From a virus: DNA of 45,068 bases. The notes under the pieces are model-generated. The model did no database searches, had not been told where the DNA came from, and saw only the letters and a list, made by a program, of their open reading frames with translations. Every line of letters begins with the position of its first letter. Position 1 is the stretch's first letter. The stretch lies in IMG/VR virus record IMGVR_UViG_3300033549_000082, positions 1-45,068 of that record; one strand, 5' to 3'. Shown here piece by piece: positions 2,371 to 45,068 of this stretch. The position numbers and the translations under genes were made by a program.

Positions 2371-2741
2371 GACGCACCTATAATTATAAATAATCCAACA
2401 AAAAACTCAGCTATTCCATATTTATCATCCATACTGGTAAGCTGAGCTTCAGCATACCAGGAGACTGTTAGGTAAAAATAAAAAGATGCAAGTACGATGC
2501 CTAAAGATGCAACTAAGTGAACTTCACTATATATAATATAGTAGGCACATACCATAATAGCACAAAGAAATATAAACATCTCAGCATAAAGAATTATATA
2601 AGTCCCTTTAGTTTTAGAAGAAATAAACAACGATACAAACAAAAGAGCTACAATAAAGGATAACTCAAAAACATCCCCCATAAATCTGGAGCTAAGAATT
2701 GTATCGAGATAAGCACGCACCTTTAGATATATTTCTTTCAC
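2340..2741 (-). CDS. small polytopic (about 4 TM) membrane protein
   Basis: 133 aa with four hydrophobic segments. GTG start preceded by AAGGGG. Overlaps the terL 3' end by 50 nt. Confidence 0.45.
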   Translation of the reverse strand: MKEIYLKVRAYLDTILSSRFMGDVFELSFIVALLFVSLFISSKTKGTYIILYAEMFIFLCAIMVCAYYIIYSEVHLVASLGIVLASFYFYLTVSWYAEAQLTSMDDKYGIAEFFVGLFIIIGASWESKRYRGI

Positions 2742-4236
2742 TTGGACCCCTTAAATAAGGCATATAATTAAGCCTCTGCGGTGTGCGGTTAATTGTGTCA
2801 GCAAAACCGACATATTTATTATCTGTAGGAATAAACGTTATTCCCATTTCTTTGCAGATAACAGGTAAATACCCAAAAGCATCCATACAATCCCAAAGTT
2901 GCGAAACTGGAAATGTAAGAAGCTGTTGTTCTAATTTTTCACAGTTTACTTTATTATGATAAATTACTCCTGCCCTATAATACGGAGCAAGTTGAGCTAT
3001 TCGCTCTTCCTTTTTTCCAACAGCTTTTAACTCCCGAAGCTGAATCATTACTCCATGTGTTTGAAGATAATTTTCAAACGGCTGAGTTATAAATGTATGT
3101 AATGAAGTCGCCTCATAAAAAATAGACGTTGCGTTATAAAGAATAGCTTGTTTAGTCGCAAGGTCATAAATCTCATCTGGATAAAATTTTCCAGACATCA
3201 CATTTCTTACAAAAACCCTTGAATTTTCTGATTCTATTCCAATAGTTAAAATAGCCGTGTCCGATGAGTGAACTTTTACGGTCTTAGCTGGGTCAATAAC
3301 TACGAAGTTTATCAACTTATTTGCATCTGTTTTCTCTCCATTAACGTCAATCTTTGTTAAAGTATCTTCATAATATTTAAAATTCTTCGGACTAAACACA
3401 GGATCTTCTGTTGACATAGGAATATTTCTATACTCTCTATAAAACGAGTCAAGCATACCCATTTTCTTATGCGTCTCATATTCCAACTGAATACGCTCAT
3501 CAGACATATACTCTGGTGCTTTACTCTTTAAATCATCTCCAAAAGCCTCAAATCTAATAACATGCCAATCATCAAGCTTCATGAGATAGACAGGAATAGC
3601 ATCTTGATGTTTTAATGTATCAATATACACTATTTTAAACTCAGCATCAAAAAATCCAGTACATTTAAGCGGGTCAGAAAAGAACCATTCTCTTCTCTTT
3701 TCTCTCATATCTTCACTAATAAGCTCTTCTTTATCTTCAATATCATCACAAATTATAAGGTCTGGTCTATAACCTGAATAATTAAGACTCCTAACCTGTT
3801 GACCGATACCACGTGGAATTATGAATGAATAATTATTTGCAACCCATCCTTCAGTAGAAAATGTCTCCTCTCTTCCTTCAATCTTCTCGGGTTTCATACT
3901 ACCATAAAATTTTCTAATAAGTTCATTAGTCATTAAAGCATTCTTTAAATTTTCTGTTTGTCTTGTCGCTATTGTATTCGAGTATGAAATATATACCATA
4001 AACCTACTTGCCTTTAATAAAATCTTCCTTGCCATATAACGAAATAAAAGAGTTGTTGTTTTTCCAAATCCACGTGGGCATAAAATTAAAATCTTTTTAT
4101 GCTTACCATCAAGAGCCTCACATATTTGTTTATGTATATGAGTATCAACTGGAAACAAATCAGGAAAGTAAAACTTTCCAAACTTTAAAGAAGTTGATAA
4201 AGACTCAGCCAAAACACCTTTAACATCAGTCATCAA
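2692..4236 (-). CDS. terL: terminase large subunit
   Basis: 514 aa. Walker A is CPRGFGKTT and Walker B-like is DLIICDDIED. The C-terminal half carries RNaseH-like nuclease Asp motifs (VVIDPAKT, DCMDAFGY). The TTG at 4236 has GAGGAG 7 nt upstream; an alternative ATG lies at 4233. Confidence 0.92.
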   Translation of the reverse strand: MMTDVKGVLAESLSTSLKFGKFYFPDLFPVDTHIHKQICEALDGKHKKILILCPRGFGKTTTLLFRYMARKILLKASRFMVYISYSNTIATRQTENLKNALMTNELIRKFYGSMKPEKIEGREETFSTEGWVANNYSFIIPRGIGQQVRSLNYSGYRPDLIICDDIEDKEELISEDMREKRREWFFSDPLKCTGFFDAEFKIVYIDTLKHQDAIPVYLMKLDDWHVIRFEAFGDDLKSKAPEYMSDERIQLEYETHKKMGMLDSFYREYRNIPMSTEDPVFSPKNFKYYEDTLTKIDVNGEKTDANKLINFVVIDPAKTVKVHSSDTAILTIGIESENSRVFVRNVMSGKFYPDEIYDLATKQAILYNATSIFYEATSLHTFITQPFENYLQTHGVMIQLRELKAVGKKEERIAQLAPYYRAGVIYHNKVNCEKLEQQLLTFPVSQLWDCMDAFGYLPVICKEMGITFIPTDNKYVGFADTINRTPQRLNYMPYLRGPSERNISKGACLSRYNS

Positions 4237-4780
4237 TACTACTCTCCTCTCTAATCATTTCAATCCCAGCCGCTTTTGCTCTCGCCCTAATTGCCTCAAG
4301 GTCTTCAGGCGAGATTGCTACAGTTATTTTTCTCATATCCATCCTTTGTAATGGACTAAAACCACCTACAGCAAGAAGATGTCTTGCATTTTGAGACTTT
4401 ACAGAATGGGACACAGCATCACTTCTTAGTGTTTCTTCAAGATACTCTAACGCCCTCGGCATTATTTCATTTATTCTTGCATTGATGTCCATTACATCAC
4501 TATTCTTATTAGCCTCAAGTAATTGAATCTGTGCCATAATAGCAGGCATCCTCCTAACCTTAGAGATATATTCTGGCACCATTCCAACAATCTTTGCTAT
4601 CTCAGCATTATCTAATCCTAATACAATATATCTCGCAATGTTAGAGTGTTTACTCCACAATAACTCAGAATCTGCCGAATAAGCATCTCCATTACTAACC
4701 CTTCCATCCTTAGACCAACTTCCCAACTCCTTAACCACCCCCCTCCACCTCCTCCCTATACTTTTTACATTTTCCGCCAT
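4226..4780 (-). CDS. putative small terminase subunit (HTH protein immediately upstream of and overlapping terL)
   Basis: The ORF track gives 4226-4792 with a TTG start; an in-frame ATG at 4780 is preferred here. A helix-turn-helix-like segment is present (NAEIAKIVGMVPEYISKVRR). The stop overlaps the terL start. Confidence 0.55.
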   Translation of the reverse strand: MAENVKSIGRRWRGVVKELGSWSKDGRVSNGDAYSADSELLWSKHSNIARYIVLGLDNAEIAKIVGMVPEYISKVRRMPAIMAQIQLLEANKNSDVMDINARINEIMPRALEYLEETLRSDAVSHSVKSQNARHLLAVGGFSPLQRMDMRKITVAISPEDLEAIRARAKAAGIEMIREESSIDD

Positions 4781-4924
4781 CTTACTTCCCAATAATATAA
4801 TCTACAATGTATAAAACACTTCAACTTTGAGGGTTTAATTATCTATTCAGAAATAGTAAATAAACCACCTTGACATGGTTAGAGATGGTTATCCCCCTTT
4901 CTATTTTATACATGGCAACCGATC

Positions 4925-4959: not shown

Positions 4960-5001
4960 GCCGAATTACATTCAGTTATTGAATTATTCTTTACTCATTA
5001 T
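4960..5001 (+). repeat. bipartite 42-nt direct repeat, unit 1
   Basis: GCCGAATTACATTCAG + 12-nt variable core + TCTTTACTCATTAT. Unit 2 lies 56 nt downstream. Confidence 0.8.
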
Positions 5002-5015
5002 GCCTCCATTCAGTT

Positions 5016-5057
5016 GCCGAATGACATTCAGAAAATATTGCACTCTTTACTCATTAT
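5016..5057 (+). repeat. bipartite 42-nt direct repeat, unit 2
   Basis: GCCGAATGACATTCAG + 12-nt variable core + TCTTTACTCATTAT. The arms match unit 1 at 29 of 30 positions; the core is unrelated. Confidence 0.8.
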
Positions 5058-5123
5058 TACTCGGTTCAGAAGAAAAGGTGTATTCGGTAAGGGGTGATGA
5101 GTAATTTGGAAAGTAAAAGTTAT

Positions 5124-5269: not shown

Positions 5270-5304
5270 AAACGAAAAACCGTGCAGAGTTTTCACCCTG
5301 CACG
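5270..5304 (-). terminator. intrinsic terminator of ORF 5313-5915
   Basis: On the minus strand: CGTGCAG-ggtgaaaact-CTGCACG followed by GTTTTTCGTTTT, starting 8 nt after the stop codon. Confidence 0.7.
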
Positions 5305-5312
5305 ATTCGGGG

Positions 5313-5915
5313 TTATTTTTTCATTAAGCCGTACTTCTTCAATTTATCGTTATCAGCCAGTAACGACATGATGAACTTCTCTTCTCGTTGCTCTTTCGTA
5401 AGTGTTTTATTATCAACAATAAGTTCATAACCACCAGTTTTGAGAGTGTTGTAGATACTCTCAAGAGTTCTAAGCGTTCTCAGGTAGGTCTGAAATTTTA
5501 CAATAATACCACTGCCCACCAGTGAGCGTGTTACATCACCTGTTAGGACAAAACCTTCTTGAATATACACTTGAAACAATTCATTGCCTTGCCACTTGGT
5601 TTCAACAAATGGGGTAGAGGAAAAATTTGTTTTGCTCAAGTTTTCATTTTCCTCTTTCATGATTACAGCTTTAAGTTGTTCCCGTTTCTCACCTTGTAGG
5701 GAAATACGAAAACGACTGGTGCTGAGTTCAAACACATCATCAGCTTTTTTTGGGATAAAAAACACAACCACCCTACCGAGCTTTTTTTCGTTTTTAAACG
5801 TGATTGTATCGGCATAAGTCAAGCAATACCAGTCGTTTTCACCTTGATATAGCCCACGTGTTGCCTTAAAATCAATACTCTCCACCTTGTCATTTTTCAT
5901 TTTTTCGTTTTTCAT
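5313..5915 (-). CDS. orphan 200-aa soluble protein, the only ORF in the control region; candidate regulator
   Basis: ATG with AAGGGA upstream. It has its own terminator and an upstream palindrome cluster. GC is about 40-42%, against about 32% in structural genes. No motif recognised; the C-terminus is basic. Confidence 0.6.
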   Translation of the reverse strand: MKNEKMKNDKVESIDFKATRGLYQGENDWYCLTYADTITFKNEKKLGRVVVFFIPKKADDVFELSTSRFRISLQGEKREQLKAVIMKEENENLSKTNFSSTPFVETKWQGNELFQVYIQEGFVLTGDVTRSLVGSGIIVKFQTYLRTLRTLESIYNTLKTGGYELIVDNKTLTKEQREEKFIMSLLADNDKLKKYGLMKK

Positions 5916-6076
5916 TTGTTATTTTCCCTTTTTTTTCAAAATTTAAATCCGATACCTATACTAATGCAAAGTATATGCCAAAATACCACAAAAACACAAA
6001 TTTCTTATAAATCCGCAGTAGGCAAGGATTTACAGCACTTCACTTTTAGCATAGATGTTTTCACTAAACTTAAAAA

Positions 6077-6091
6077 TGACAAAATTTGTCA
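6077..6091. promoter_or_regulatory. operator-like perfect palindrome O1, TGACAAA-A-TTTGTCA
   Basis: Read directly. It lies in the leader of ORF 5313-5915. Confidence 0.5.
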
Positions 6092-6121
6092 TGCGAAAAT
6101 GCTCTTTTTAGTGGGTAGCCT

Positions 6122-6149
6122 ACAGTATCAAGGTTTAAGAGACTGACAA
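6122..6149 (-). promoter_or_regulatory. candidate leftward sigma70-type promoter for ORF 5313-5915
   Basis: Minus strand reads TTGTCA (6144-6149), a 16-nt spacer, then TACTGT (6122-6127). The -35 element lies inside palindrome O2. Confidence 0.4.
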
Positions 6150-6158
6150 AAATTGTCA
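6144..6158. promoter_or_regulatory. operator-like perfect palindrome O2, TGACAA-AAA-TTGTCA
   Basis: Read directly. It overlaps the -35 elements of both candidate divergent promoters. Confidence 0.5.
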
Positions 6159-6182
6159 TTTTTTGACAAAAATTGTCATAAT
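6153..6182 (+). promoter_or_regulatory. candidate rightward sigma70-type promoter
   Basis: TTGTCA (6153-6158), an 18-nt spacer, then CATAAT (6177-6182). The spacer and -10 are covered by palindrome O3. Confidence 0.35.
6164..6178. promoter_or_regulatory. operator-like perfect palindrome O3, TGACAA-AAA-TTGTCA
   Basis: Identical to O2, centre-to-centre spacing 20 bp. Confidence 0.5.
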
Positions 6183-6517
6183 TCATTTTTGAACGTTTTA
6201 ATGTATTGCGTGGCATGAAATATGCAACGGTGAGCTAATTCAGGTAATCTTAAATGTGTACGGAAAAACAAGTTTATTTCGCCATTGGTTAAATGGTTTC
6301 ATTCACTTAAAGGATTTTACCGATATGAAAAACATTAGCATAAAAGAAAAAAGTTAGGTGAGCCAAAATGGTTTTGGTCGCATAAAACGGTATAAATTTT
6401 GCATTTGCAGGTATTATGCCAACCGAAATGCGTTCAATAAATAAGACATGAATAATAAATAAAGGAAAGTTACTAAACGACATTTATTCGAAGAAAACAA
6501 AACGATAAAATTTTTAC

Positions 6518-6560
6518 CTCACATGGCTATAGCCGTTTTCTGCATCTCACATGGCTGTAG
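6518..6560 (+). repeat. two 15-nt direct repeats CTCACATGGCTRTAG (6518-6532, 6546-6560)
   Basis: 14 of 15 positions identical, period 28 nt. The first copy contains the palindrome GGCTATAGCC. Confidence 0.7.
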
Positions 6561-6590
6561 TAACAACCTCAACTGAGTTTATTTTTTAAC

Positions 6591-6619
6591 TTCAGATTGC
6601 GAAGAGGAGGTGATATTAT
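6591..6619 (+). promoter_or_regulatory. candidate extended -10 promoter
   Basis: TTCAGA, a 17-nt spacer whose last three bases TGA supply the TGn motif, then TATTAT at 6614-6619. It is paralogous in context (CAACTGAGTT ... GGAGGTGATATWAT) to the promoter at 11557-11585. Confidence 0.45.
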
Positions 6620-6874
6620 CTTCAAAAGGCGAAAAGAAAGAAAATAATGGGGGGCGAGGGGGGGCTTAATAGATGAAGGTAGAGAACTTAACCTAAAAAA
6701 GAAAATCCAAAGCTACTTCTTAATGAAAGAGAGGAAAAGAAATATCTTAAATAAAAAGCCTTTTTTGAACGTAGGTGGAAGTGAAGAGAAGGAATAAATT
6801 CTTTGATTTTTATCTGTTTTCATCAGGTAAAAGTGGAGAGAAGAAAAGAAAAGGAGGAATTTTCAAGAAGCTGT

Positions 6875-6893
6875 GTTTTTGTGGCTTTATGGT
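6875..6893 (+). repeat. iteron-like repeat GTTTTTGTGGCTTTATGGT
   Basis: Direct copy of 7203-7221 and inverted copy of 6988-7006 (17 of 19 positions). Confidence 0.7.
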
Positions 6894-6987
6894 TTTACCT
6901 TAAATTCTCGTAGAAATAGTCATTTTTAAAGATATTACCTTTAAAAAACAGTCCTTTTTCATTATAGAAGAGAGTTTTATCTATGCT

Positions 6988-7006
6988 ACCACAAAACCAC
7001 AAAAAC
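6988..7006 (-). repeat. iteron-like repeat, inverted copy (ACCACAAAACCACAAAAAC)
   Basis: Its reverse complement GTTTTTGTGGTTTTGTGGT matches 6875-6893 at 17 of 19 positions. A partial copy lies at 5985-6000. Confidence 0.7.
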
Positions 7007-7076
7007 GGGGGTCGGCACAGGCAGACATCTTTTTTCCTTTCTTAGCTTTTTTCTCTTACTGTAGCGTTTACAGGGA

Positions 7077-7119
7077 GATATATATAGATATATATATAGA
7101 TATATATATATCTATATAG
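7077..7119. repeat. (TA)n-rich tandem and palindromic tract
   Basis: GATATATATA GATATATATATA GATATATATATATCTATATAG. It includes the perfect 16-nt palindrome AGATATATATATATCT (7098-7113). Confidence 0.85.
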
Positions 7120-7172
7120 AAAAACTACTAATAAGTAATTGAATTTACTCAAAAAAAAATCCAAAAAAATAC

Positions 7173-7201
7173 TTGACTTTTTCCTGTTCGTGGGATATAA
7201 C
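7173..7201 (+). promoter_or_regulatory. early sigma70-type promoter with upstream A-tracts
   Basis: TTGACT, a 17-nt spacer, then TATAAC. A9 and A7 tracts at 7151-7169 are UP-element-like. The first early gene starts at 7244. Confidence 0.7.
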
Positions 7202-7202
7202 G

Positions 7203-7221
7203 GTTTTGTGGTTTTATGGTT
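7203..7221 (+). repeat. iteron-like repeat GTTTTGTGGTTTTATGGTT immediately after the -10 of the early promoter
   Basis: Direct copy of 6875-6893. It sits at about +2 to +20 relative to the -10 end, which is an operator position. Confidence 0.65.
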
Positions 7222-7243
7222 ATGAGGGATAGGAGGTTTTTAT

Positions 7244-17194: not shown

Positions 17195-18565
17195 ATGGCT
17201 ATGAAAGAAAACGTTTTATATGAATCAATTCACTTTTCTAAAATAAAAGAAGGTGAAAGATATAGAAAGGACTACGGTAAAGTAAACGAGCTTGTAGAAT
17301 CTATCCATTCCGATGGGTTGTTTCATCCCATAGGAGTAAGAAAAAAGGGAGATGAATATGAGCTTGTCTTTGGTGGAAGACGCTTCAAAGCCCTCTTACA
17401 ATTAATAGAGGCAAAAAAACATGAAGAGCTTATTCCGTGTAAAATCTATCTGGATGAGCTTACTGAACTCCAACTGAGAGAAATGGAGCTGTCAGAAAAT
17501 CTTTACAGAAAAGATTTAACGTGGTATGAAAGGCAGGTTCTTAGAAAAAGAATCTTCGAGCTTAGGGAGGCAATTTCTGGAAGAAAACCTGCCAGAGTTA
17601 AAGATGGAGAAGGTATAACAATAGAGGAAATTGCTGCGTCATTTGGAATAAGTAAAGCCTCTTTATCAAACGACATCGCTATGCAGAAACAAATAGAAGC
17701 ACTTCCTCCAGATATGAGAGAACACGTTATGGGTGCTCCAACAAGGAGCGATGCAGAGAAAGCCATAAAGAAATTACAGAGTAGAATTATTACTTCTGCT
17801 AATGCGGAAGTGATAAAAAGCCAAATTGATAAAGTTTATAGTGGCTCTATAAAAGCAGCGTTAATAGAATCATATAAACTTAATGATTTTTTTAAAGGTG
17901 TTGAGCGTTTTGATGATAATACCTTTAATTTTATTGAGGTAGACCCTCCTTACGGAATTGGTTTGGTTGAAAGTAAACAAGGGGACGTCATCTCATCCGA
18001 ATATGTGGAAATAAATCATACCGAGTATGATTCATTTATCAATAAGGTTTGTCGAAGTTGTTATAGAGTTCTTCGGGATAACAGTTGGGCGATTTTTTGG
18101 TATGCAATGCCTAATCAACAGCTTTTATGGAACGCTTTGATAAATGCAGGATTTAAATTTGATAAACGTCCTGCCATCTGGAATAAAGAGAAAACAGGAC
18201 AAACAAACAATCCACAACTTATACTTGGAAGTACTTATGAGTTGTTCATATATGCAAGAAAGGGAGTACCACATATACAAAAACAAGGTAGAAGTAACGT
18301 ATTTACTTTTCATGAAGTTCCACCCACCAAAAAAATCCATCCTACAGAAAAGTCCTTAGAACTATATAAGGAAATCTACGCAACTTTTTGTTCTGAAGGC
18401 TCAAATGTTCTTGTATCGTTCGCAGGCAGCGGAGTAAGCTTAATAGCCTGCTATAAACATAACTGTCGTGGAATAGGATTTGATTTAAGCGAAAGTTTTA
18501 GAAACTCTTTTATAGTAAAAGTCGGAGAGTTGGAGAAGGAGGTAAAACATGAAGGGAATAGTTAA
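17195..18565 (+). CDS. ParB-like nuclease domain fused to a beta-class N6-adenine/N4-cytosine DNA methyltransferase
   Basis: N-terminal ParB box FGGRRFKAL. Methyltransferase motif IV is EVDPPYG, followed later by motif I FAGSGVS (order IV then I). Confidence 0.88.
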   Translation: MAMKENVLYESIHFSKIKEGERYRKDYGKVNELVESIHSDGLFHPIGVRKKGDEYELVFGGRRFKALLQLIEAKKHEELIPCKIYLDELTELQLREMELSENLYRKDLTWYERQVLRKRIFELREAISGRKPARVKDGEGITIEEIAASFGISKASLSNDIAMQKQIEALPPDMREHVMGAPTRSDAEKAIKKLQSRIITSANAEVIKSQIDKVYSGSIKAALIESYKLNDFFKGVERFDDNTFNFIEVDPPYGIGLVESKQGDVISSEYVEINHTEYDSFINKVCRSCYRVLRDNSWAIFWYAMPNQQLLWNALINAGFKFDKRPAIWNKEKTGQTNNPQLILGSTYELFIYARKGVPHIQKQGRSNVFTFHEVPPTKKIHPTEKSLELYKEIYATFCSEGSNVLVSFAGSGVSLIACYKHNCRGIGFDLSESFRNSFIVKVGELEKEVKHEGNS

Positions 18566-44618: not shown

Positions 44619-44695
44619 AATTAGTCCTTAGAAAATATGAGGGTTATATACAATCCCATATCATCATTTTTTGTCATTTTTTCTACGTATCCTCC

Positions 44696-44992
44696 TTAAA
44701 ATGGATTACTTGCTTCTACAGATACTCCTTCTCTCCCAACTCCAACCGCATACTTAAAAGCGTCTGCTCCAATCAACCACTTTAATATCTCTAATGTTGG
44801 GTCTATCGGCTCAACAGGGGGCTTAGTATAGCTAATATGTACATCTATCAATTTAACCTCCTTCGCATCAAAAGTAAAAGTAGGGAGTGGTATAGGCTCA
44901 CTAATACCCCTCTCAGCCTTTACTATTCTCTCTATAGCTCCACAGGAAGCTAAAGAGAAACAAAAAATAAATATTAAGGTAATATTTTTCAT
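44696..44992 (-). CDS. small Pro-rich lipoprotein (candidate o-spanin)
   Basis: MKNITLIFIFCFSLAS|C lipobox. The mature part has EPIPLPTF and KPPVEPIDP. The ORF spans the circular junction (its start corresponds to window position 65). Confidence 0.55.
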   Translation of the reverse strand: MKNITLIFIFCFSLASCGAIERIVKAERGISEPIPLPTFTFDAKEVKLIDVHISYTKPPVEPIDPTLEILKWLIGADAFKYAVGVGREGVSVEASNPF

Positions 44993-45068
44993 GATTCTTC
45001 AAGGTCTAATATTTGCTAATAACTGTAATCCATAAATAACCTCATTCATCTGCTCACAAACACTTAAC
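44928..45068. repeat. terminal direct repeat, copy 2
   Basis: Identical to 1-141. Confidence 0.9.

Follow-up and report, generated by a model that had tools for sequence, protein, structure and literature searches.

The window analyzed here, the 45,068 nucleotides of IMG/VR virus record IMGVR_UViG_3300033549_000082, carries on its minus strand (5313–5915) an orphan open reading frame (ORF) of 200 amino acids, which is preceded by three exact palindromes (O1–O3) and, between these and the ORF, by a predicted σ54 (−24/−12) promoter named P1. The favored interpretation, to which we assign a probability of roughly 0.75, is that this ORF is a self-terminated moron whose expression would depend on σ54 and on the pilin regulator PilR of the host. 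In an initial annotation, based on the letters of the sequence, regulatory sites had been recognized in front of a self-contained gene, and this general description is supported by the present analysis. The palindromes are most likely bound by a host factor, an outcome which the same annotation had set against its own proposal of a phage-encoded switch.

All three palindromes lie exactly where they had been placed before, namely O3 (TGACAAAAATTGTCA) at 6164–6178, O2 (again TGACAAAAATTGTCA) at 6144–6158, and O1 (TGACAAAATTTGTCA) at 6077–6091, and they share the consensus TGACAA-N3-TTGTCA. O3, a predicted PilR-type enhancer site (upstream activating sequence, UAS), is the distal member of a tandem pair with O2, their centers being 20 bp apart; the modal spacing among the 98 motif-bearing loci considered below is 20–22 bp. 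O1 is a single, promoter-proximal site at 67 bp from O2. Given the base composition, about 0.001 exact palindrome matches would be expected in 45 kb, compared with three found within 102 bp, and the half-site hexamers are under-represented elsewhere in the genome (TTGTCA, 7 versus 14.6 expected; TGACAA, 10 versus 16.1 expected). The 12-mer which had been reported to recur at 44671 is indeed present, but it is only a half-site, without a palindrome partner and with no −24/−12 element nearby. A 37-nt query consisting of the tandem sites returned only weak partial matches from isolated phages.

P1 (TGGCATATACTTTGCA, i.e., TGGCAT-N5-TTGCA) occupies 5980–5965 on the minus strand, with a predicted transcription start near 5954. 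Nowhere else in the genome is TGGCAY-N5-TTGCW matched without a mismatch. A position-weight matrix (PWM) trained on 49 bacterial σ54 promoters gave P1 a score of 27.2, as compared with a median of 24.6 for the training set; the runner-up in the genome scored 15.1. O1 is located 97 bp and O2/O3 164–184 bp upstream of P1, which by its sequence has the attributes of a σ54 enhancer-dependent promoter, both in the spacing of its elements and in the upstream sites at about 60–200 bp. The predicted 5′ leader (5916–5954, minus strand; 39 nt), whose position follows from the −24/−12 geometry, is unstructured (−1.1 kcal/mol, z = +0.39), and its weak Shine–Dalgarno sequence, AAGGG, precedes the start codon of the ORF by about 10 nt.

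The nature of the presumed activator is suggested by the distribution of the motif in bacteria. Bacteria and archaea, represented by one genome per species, were searched for two copies of TGACAAWWWTTGTCA at a distance of 3–8 bp. This yielded 75 bacterial loci with tandem sites, distributed over many phyla, including Desulfobacterota (with cable bacteria), Acidobacteriota, Nitrospirota, Aquificota, Clostridia, Planctomycetota, and Gammaproteobacteria (with Moraxella atlantae). The chance expectation, estimated from pattern length and collection size, is far below one per collection, and the guanine–cytosine (GC) content of all tandem-motif loci, viral and bacterial, ranges from 0.28 to 0.63. 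When ORFs located up to 1.5 kb from the sites were clustered, type IV pilins emerged as the dominant neighbor (42 of the 75 loci), followed by NtrC-type regulators, histidine kinases, and PilB-like ATPases; regulators of the Response_reg + Sigma54_activat + HTH_8 type, the histidine kinases, and the N_methyl motif of the pilins were confirmed with Pfam. An outward-facing TGG[CT]A[CT]-N5-NTGC[AT] element is present within 300 bp of the sites in 57 of the 98 motif-bearing loci, against a background of 0.026 per kb, and the bacterial sites are situated 40–200 bp upstream of the −24/−12 promoter. Of 41 bacterial loci, 28 have a type IV pilin gene as the first ORF behind this promoter. Such pilin promoters are often found just downstream of a pilS/pilR-like two-component pair, and several loci (e.g., L034 and L098) show the order regulator, sites, σ54 promoter, pilin. 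This order corresponds to the pilS–pilR–pilA layout described for Geobacter. Based on this association with σ54 pilin promoters and on the neighboring genes of PilR architecture, we infer that the palindrome is the enhancer site of a pilin-associated σ54 activator, PilR.

The geometry of the window corresponds to that of the bacterial pilin promoters in motif, tandem spacing, third site, and promoter distance. A third site at 64–70 bp from the pair is common among them, and four pilin promoters of low-GC uncultured bacteria (L036, L067, L080, and L053) combine a distal pair with a single proximal site at 97–101 bp from the promoter, a layout matched by the window with its spacings of 20 and 67 bp and its distance of 97 bp to P1. 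In 13 of the 41 bacterial loci the first gene is not a pilin and encodes, for example, an HD-domain, PilZ-like, or secreted protein. Inspection by eye identified HD-domain (HD-GYP-like) proteins and a PilZ-like protein behind the σ54 promoter in L033, L040, and L051, which hints at a link between the regulon of these sites and cyclic diguanylate (c-di-GMP) signaling. A low-GC metagenome-assembled genome (MAG) labeled 'Pseudomonadota' (prefix JBDREC01) holds at least nine tandem-site loci (L032, L039, L041, L042, L059, L060, L073, L078, and L097); in several of them an identical promoter, TGGCATGGAAATTGCT, is found at 73 bp before paralogous pilins. Tandem sites also occur at 11–46 of L101, a contig of 1.7 kb assigned by binning to a Woesearchaeota archaeon, possibly as a result of a binning error or of the contig being a viral fragment.

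The window is not the only viral sequence with such sites. In IMG/VR, two copies of TGACAAWWWTTGTCA at 3–8 bp from each other were detected in 22 viral contigs (GC 0.28–0.58), nearly all of which contain the identical 15-mer. A second search, for one palindrome followed at 55–115 bp by TGGCAY-N5-TTGCW, provided 28 further contigs with palindrome and σ54 promoter, for a total of about 50. Several motif-bearing contigs are confirmed as phage by terminase genes nearby. In all 36 viral promoter instances (36/36) the first ORF encodes something other than a pilin, mostly a small protein; the few cargo proteins that were checked from other viral loci had no informative Pfam annotation and no similarity to the ORF of the window. 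Strong divergent σ54 promoters are present on both sides of the sites in L020 and L111. A different arrangement is seen in L017, L018, L026, and L028 (L018, 3247–3282) and in L022 (5461–5497), in which the tandem sites stand 5–7 bp upstream of a near-consensus σ70 promoter (TTGACT-17-TATAAT or TTGACA-17-TAATAT) with no σ54 promoter. The σ70 promoter leads into the gene of the small terminase subunit, terS, in the L017 family and into an unannotated ORF in L022; L018 additionally contains variant repeats TTTGTCAAYARTTGTTAC. With terS located just downstream in many viral loci, the palindromes were also considered as recognition sites for TerS (packaging sites, pac). This idea was dropped, since the neighboring TerS proteins belong to unrelated families (GP3_package, Terminase_2, and HTH type) and the bacterial copies have a pilin-promoter context. 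RNA hairpins were rejected as well, the orientation of the A/T center being variable relative to the neighboring genes.

The window ends in an exact terminal direct repeat of 141 bp (1–141 = 44928–45068) and therefore represents a complete circular genome of about 44.9 kb, with a GC content of 35.3%. A Pfam scan of 50 phage ORFs (E ≤ 1e-3) identified SU10-type capsid and portal proteins, a family A DNA polymerase, UDG, DUF3987, a ParB_N-methylase fusion, a PD-(D/E)XK nuclease, and a muramidase. The phage is apparently lytic and of the SU10-capsid type. The same scan detected no Sigma54_activat, integrase, recombinase, or helix–turn–helix (HTH) family, in agreement with the earlier statement that neither an integrase nor an obvious HTH repressor is encoded. 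Bacterial enhancer-binding regulators used as tblastn queries found no match in the window, and a hidden Markov model (HMM) of their DNA-binding domains (Fis-type HTH) found none in the phage. With no activator detected among the phage genes, expression from P1 would depend on σ54 and an activator of the host.

In the proposed mechanism, phosphorylated host PilR, a response regulator of the NtrC family, would bind O1–O3 and assemble into an active AAA+ oligomer. By looping of the DNA, PilR would contact the host RNA polymerase–σ54 waiting as a closed complex on P1 and would open the promoter at the expense of ATP. Transcription would then start near 5954, proceed through the short unstructured leader and the 200-codon ORF, and stop at the hairpin terminator (5308–5277). 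The unit would be switched on by the pilus-regulation circuit of the host, not by a phage regulator, and the purpose may be to limit expression to piliated, hence probably susceptible, cells. As a possible further effect, replicating phage DNA could titrate PilR.

The ORF, found as predicted at 5313–5915, encodes a protein of 23.3 kDa with a pI of 9.2, soluble in the sense that no transmembrane segment is present. No match was obtained in Pfam, PHROGs, PADLOC, or PDB sequences, nor by tblastn against isolated phages. A word search of 5.8 billion clustered proteins and an exhaustive comparison with 1.8 billion cluster representatives by HMMER retrieved only the protein itself, apart from P0002, a repetitive protein of 3816 amino acids. 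P0002 was rejected as a homologue, its match being noise produced by nine copies of a short repeat. A single-sequence AlphaFold prediction was uninformative (mean predicted local distance difference test score, pLDDT, 39.9). The dedicated terminator placed by that annotation at 5270–5304 is real; the scan locates it at 5277–5308 on the minus strand, with a 14-pair stem followed by a U-rich tail (−21.5 kcal/mol, z = −4.4). The GC contrast described there (40–42% versus 32%) is not reproduced, the measured values being 37.0% for the ORF and 35.3% for the genome. The unit lies between the divergent control region and the putative small-terminase gene (4226–4792). None of the six nearest relatives that were recovered (L001–L006; TerL 38–43% identical) carries the motif, the σ54 promoter, or the ORF, although these relatives are distant and the absence is only suggestive of a moron. 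From its sequence features, the ORF is most likely an autonomous moron-like unit with its own predicted promoter and terminator, which fits the fallback explanation of the initial annotation, a moron with an unrelated function. As a low-confidence guess, its product might act in pilus-related host manipulation, for example superinfection exclusion.

Several observations weigh against a PilR/σ54-dependent moron. The assignment to PilR derives from gene neighborhood, and the published PilR sites of Pseudomonas aeruginosa (TGT-N11-ACA; GTCT elements) are only loosely similar to the 15-mer, which was not found in this exact form in the searchable literature. The presence of PilR and RpoN in the host is presumed. 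No site for the integration host factor (IHF) was recognized between O1 and P1, the site search being uninformative in this respect, and the Shine–Dalgarno sequence of the ORF is weaker than those of other phage genes. Furthermore, a σ54 promoter near the sites is missing from about 13 of the 22 viral loci found first, some of which adjoin a σ70-like −35 element instead; in some phages the sites may thus have a different function, for example titration of PilR or repression.

Such a role could also be imagined for the window itself. The site cluster might act mainly as a PilR sink or operator, which would shut down the synthesis of pilin (the receptor) by titration of PilR or repress an overlapping σ70 promoter, leaving P1 secondary. 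The three perfect sites of consensus strength, the σ70-like element overlapped by O3, and the many viral tandem sites without a recognizable σ54 promoter, some of which abut a σ70-like −35 (L017 family and L022), are all consistent with this idea. Yet the top quality of P1, at a canonical distance and with the canonical layout of sites, would be hard to explain if activation were irrelevant, and we consider a mere sink unlikely, while noting that it is compatible with, and not exclusive of, PilR-dependent activation of P1. Marginally less likely again is a different binder of the same specificity, either another σ54 activator of the host or a DNA-binding mimic of the phage that escaped recognition. 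Most early proteins of the phage lack annotation, and the non-pilin first genes in bacterial loci would be compatible with another activator; against this, the downstream genes are mostly pilins, regulators of PilR architecture adjoin the sites, and no phage protein resembles the DNA-binding domain of the activator. The non-pilin targets, moreover, fit the wider PilR regulon that has been reported for other species.

The cI/cro-type switch envisaged in the initial annotation, with the palindromes as operators over divergent σ70 promoters and the ORF product as a new repressor or immunity factor, is not supported and appears highly improbable. It accounts for three dyad-symmetric sites in a divergent intergenic region and for a rightward TTGTCA-18-CATAAT element, which overlaps O2/O3, scores 10/12, has an upstream TG, and does appear in the scan list. 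The leftward partner (TTGTCA-16-TACTGT), in contrast, fails the scan, and with 11 σ70-like matches versus 8.5 ± 3.2 expected in shuffled sequence the region is at chance level. No integrase, HTH protein, or gene within 1 kb of the rightward promoter was found to complete such a switch, and the homology searches relate the ORF to no known repressor. The identical motif with the same 20–22 bp spacing is found in bacterial σ54 pilin promoters, P1, overlooked in the initial annotation, lies between O1 and the ORF, and this consensus σ54 promoter would account for expression of the latter. A repressor function of the ORF product is further opposed by the fact that the motif is conserved in some 125 additional loci, 75 of them bacterial and about 50 viral, none of which encodes a homologue of the ORF. 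Least probable of all is an inert relic, namely a fragment of a host pilin promoter that was picked up by illegitimate recombination and has lost its function in the phage. The absence of the unit from the distant relatives and the weak Shine–Dalgarno sequence could be taken in this sense, but all palindromes are perfect, the promoter scores above the bacterial median, a 200-codon ORF is intact in a genome of 35% GC and followed by a strong terminator, and dozens of unrelated viral contigs show the same arrangement.

Among known systems, the closest parallel to PilR-dependent activation of P1 is the PilS–PilR/σ54 control of pilA in P. aeruginosa, Myxococcus xanthus, and Geobacter sulfurreducens, in which repeated TGTC-containing sites likewise precede a −24/−12 promoter, by distances ranging from tens of base pairs up to about 200 bp. 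There, the NtrC-family regulator is encoded beside the pilin gene, whereas the window has neither pilS nor pilR. The promoter of the window belongs to a phage genome and precedes a soluble orphan protein instead of a pilin, and the 15-bp palindrome differs from the TGT-N11-ACA published for P. aeruginosa. Phage morons, autonomous transcription units between phage genes, have been described for lambdoid phages. Like them, the window unit has its own promoter and terminator, both predicted; it is positioned upstream of the terminase genes, where two modules meet, and it is absent from relatives, although these are distant. Known morons, however, use ordinary σ70 promoters and are typical of temperate phages, while the window unit is predicted to be enhancer/σ54-dependent, resides in a phage without detected lysogeny genes, and shows a minimal GC contrast. 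The OR/OL operators of the lambda cI/Cro switch are similar in having three dyad-symmetric sites in a divergent intergenic region; they differ from the window, where the spacings are 20 and 67 bp, the motif also serves host pilin promoters, and no repressor- or cro-like gene, integrase, or above-chance σ70 signal is found. Some phages exclude superinfection by means of proteins that block type IV pili, such as Tip (D3112), Aqs1 (DMS3), and PfsE (Pf phages). The link of these proteins to the window is only conceptual, in that a pilus-coregulated gene might act on the pilus, and the ORF has no homologues at all.

Phage genes are normally under the control of σ70-type or phage-specific promoters, and the type IV pilus is a common phage receptor. 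No description of a phage promoter dependent on σ54 and a host two-component regulator was found in the literature searched. What may be new here is the combination of known kinds, a σ54 enhancer promoter and a phage moron, within a phage and its recurrence in dozens of unrelated viral contigs. If the interpretation of the window is correct, making one phage gene conditional on the activity of the host pilin regulator would be a simple way of sensing piliated, probably adsorbable cells. The gene could also stay expressed if σ70 transcription were shut off, and perfect sites on replicating DNA could in addition depress pilin synthesis. A broader proposal is put forward more tentatively, its chances being judged slightly short of even: many phages from very different bacterial phyla might wire genes to the host pilus circuit via PilR enhancer sites, often with σ54 promoters, in order to read the pilus state and possibly to drain PilR and stop receptor synthesis. 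In that case, the window would illustrate, with a complete genome, a strategy that is widespread but undescribed. The analysis also offers TGACAA-N3-TTGTCA, in tandem at 20–22 bp, as a candidate consensus for pilin-associated σ54 activators across many uncultured phyla, and the roughly 50 viral contigs as a candidate set for pilus-related functions of their genes.

The genome is organized in two divergent arms, with structural and packaging genes on the minus strand and replication genes on the plus strand from 7244. The minus-strand arm includes the large terminase subunit, TerL (2692–4236), whose best named relative, at 41.6% identity, is that of Desulfofustis phage LS06-2018-MD01. The arms are separated by a stretch of 1.33 kb without a credible ORF (5916–7243), and the ORF-free region described before to the right of the sites is confirmed, no plus-strand ORF of at least 43 amino acids being present between O3 and 7244. 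A blastn comparison of the studied region with isolated phages was negative, as were Rfam searches at gathering and at permissive thresholds, and no tRNAs were detected.

A rightward σ54 promoter in this region is plausible but unproven, its plausibility being derived from the viral contigs L020 and L111, in which strong divergent σ54 promoters flank the sites. The candidate P2 (TGGCATGAAATATGCA; 6211–6226, plus strand), at 33 bp from O3, is a weaker −24/−12-like element with one pattern mismatch and uncertain status. In its core it is almost the same as the bacterial promoter of L066, but its flanks are poor, with a PWM score below 12 when they are included. Downstream of P2, neither a structured RNA (z = 0.16) nor a convincing small ORF was detected. 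Two more weak elements of uncertain status span 6388–6421 in opposite orientations: CGGTATAAATTTTGCA on the plus strand (6388–6403; PWM 14.1) and TGGCATAATACCTGCA on the minus strand (6406–6421). An inverted repeat, I25, connects this stretch with P1. At 100–140 bp upstream of the minus-strand element, a direct repeat CTCACATGGCT(A/G)TAG with an internal palindrome GGCTATAGCC occurs at 6518–6532 and 6546–6560, and might be a second activator site.

A strong σ70-like promoter, TTGACT-17-TATAAC, is present at 7174–7202; the first gene of the plus strand begins about 40 nt further on (7244). It is probably the real early promoter and was missed by the scan because its −10 element ends in C. A motif resembling ACCA(C/T)AAA(A/G)CCACAAAA is found in four copies, at 5984–6000 and 6987–7007 on the plus strand and at 6875–6893 and 7201–7220 on the minus strand; one of them abuts the −24 element of P1 and another lies just downstream of the candidate early promoter. 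A phage regulator or a replication initiator may bind these copies. At 7075–7128, a palindromic (ATATATATAG)n tract has perfectly complementary arms of 18 nt and, given its nearness to the minimum of the cumulative GC skew at about 5–6 kb, could be a DNA-unwinding element or origin. The single ORF at 17195–18565 combines a ParB N-terminal domain and an N6/N4 DNA methylase domain. Finally, an imperfect direct repeat of 54 nt (4960–5069; 74% identical), located upstream of the putative small-terminase gene, may represent packaging-recognition or late-promoter elements.

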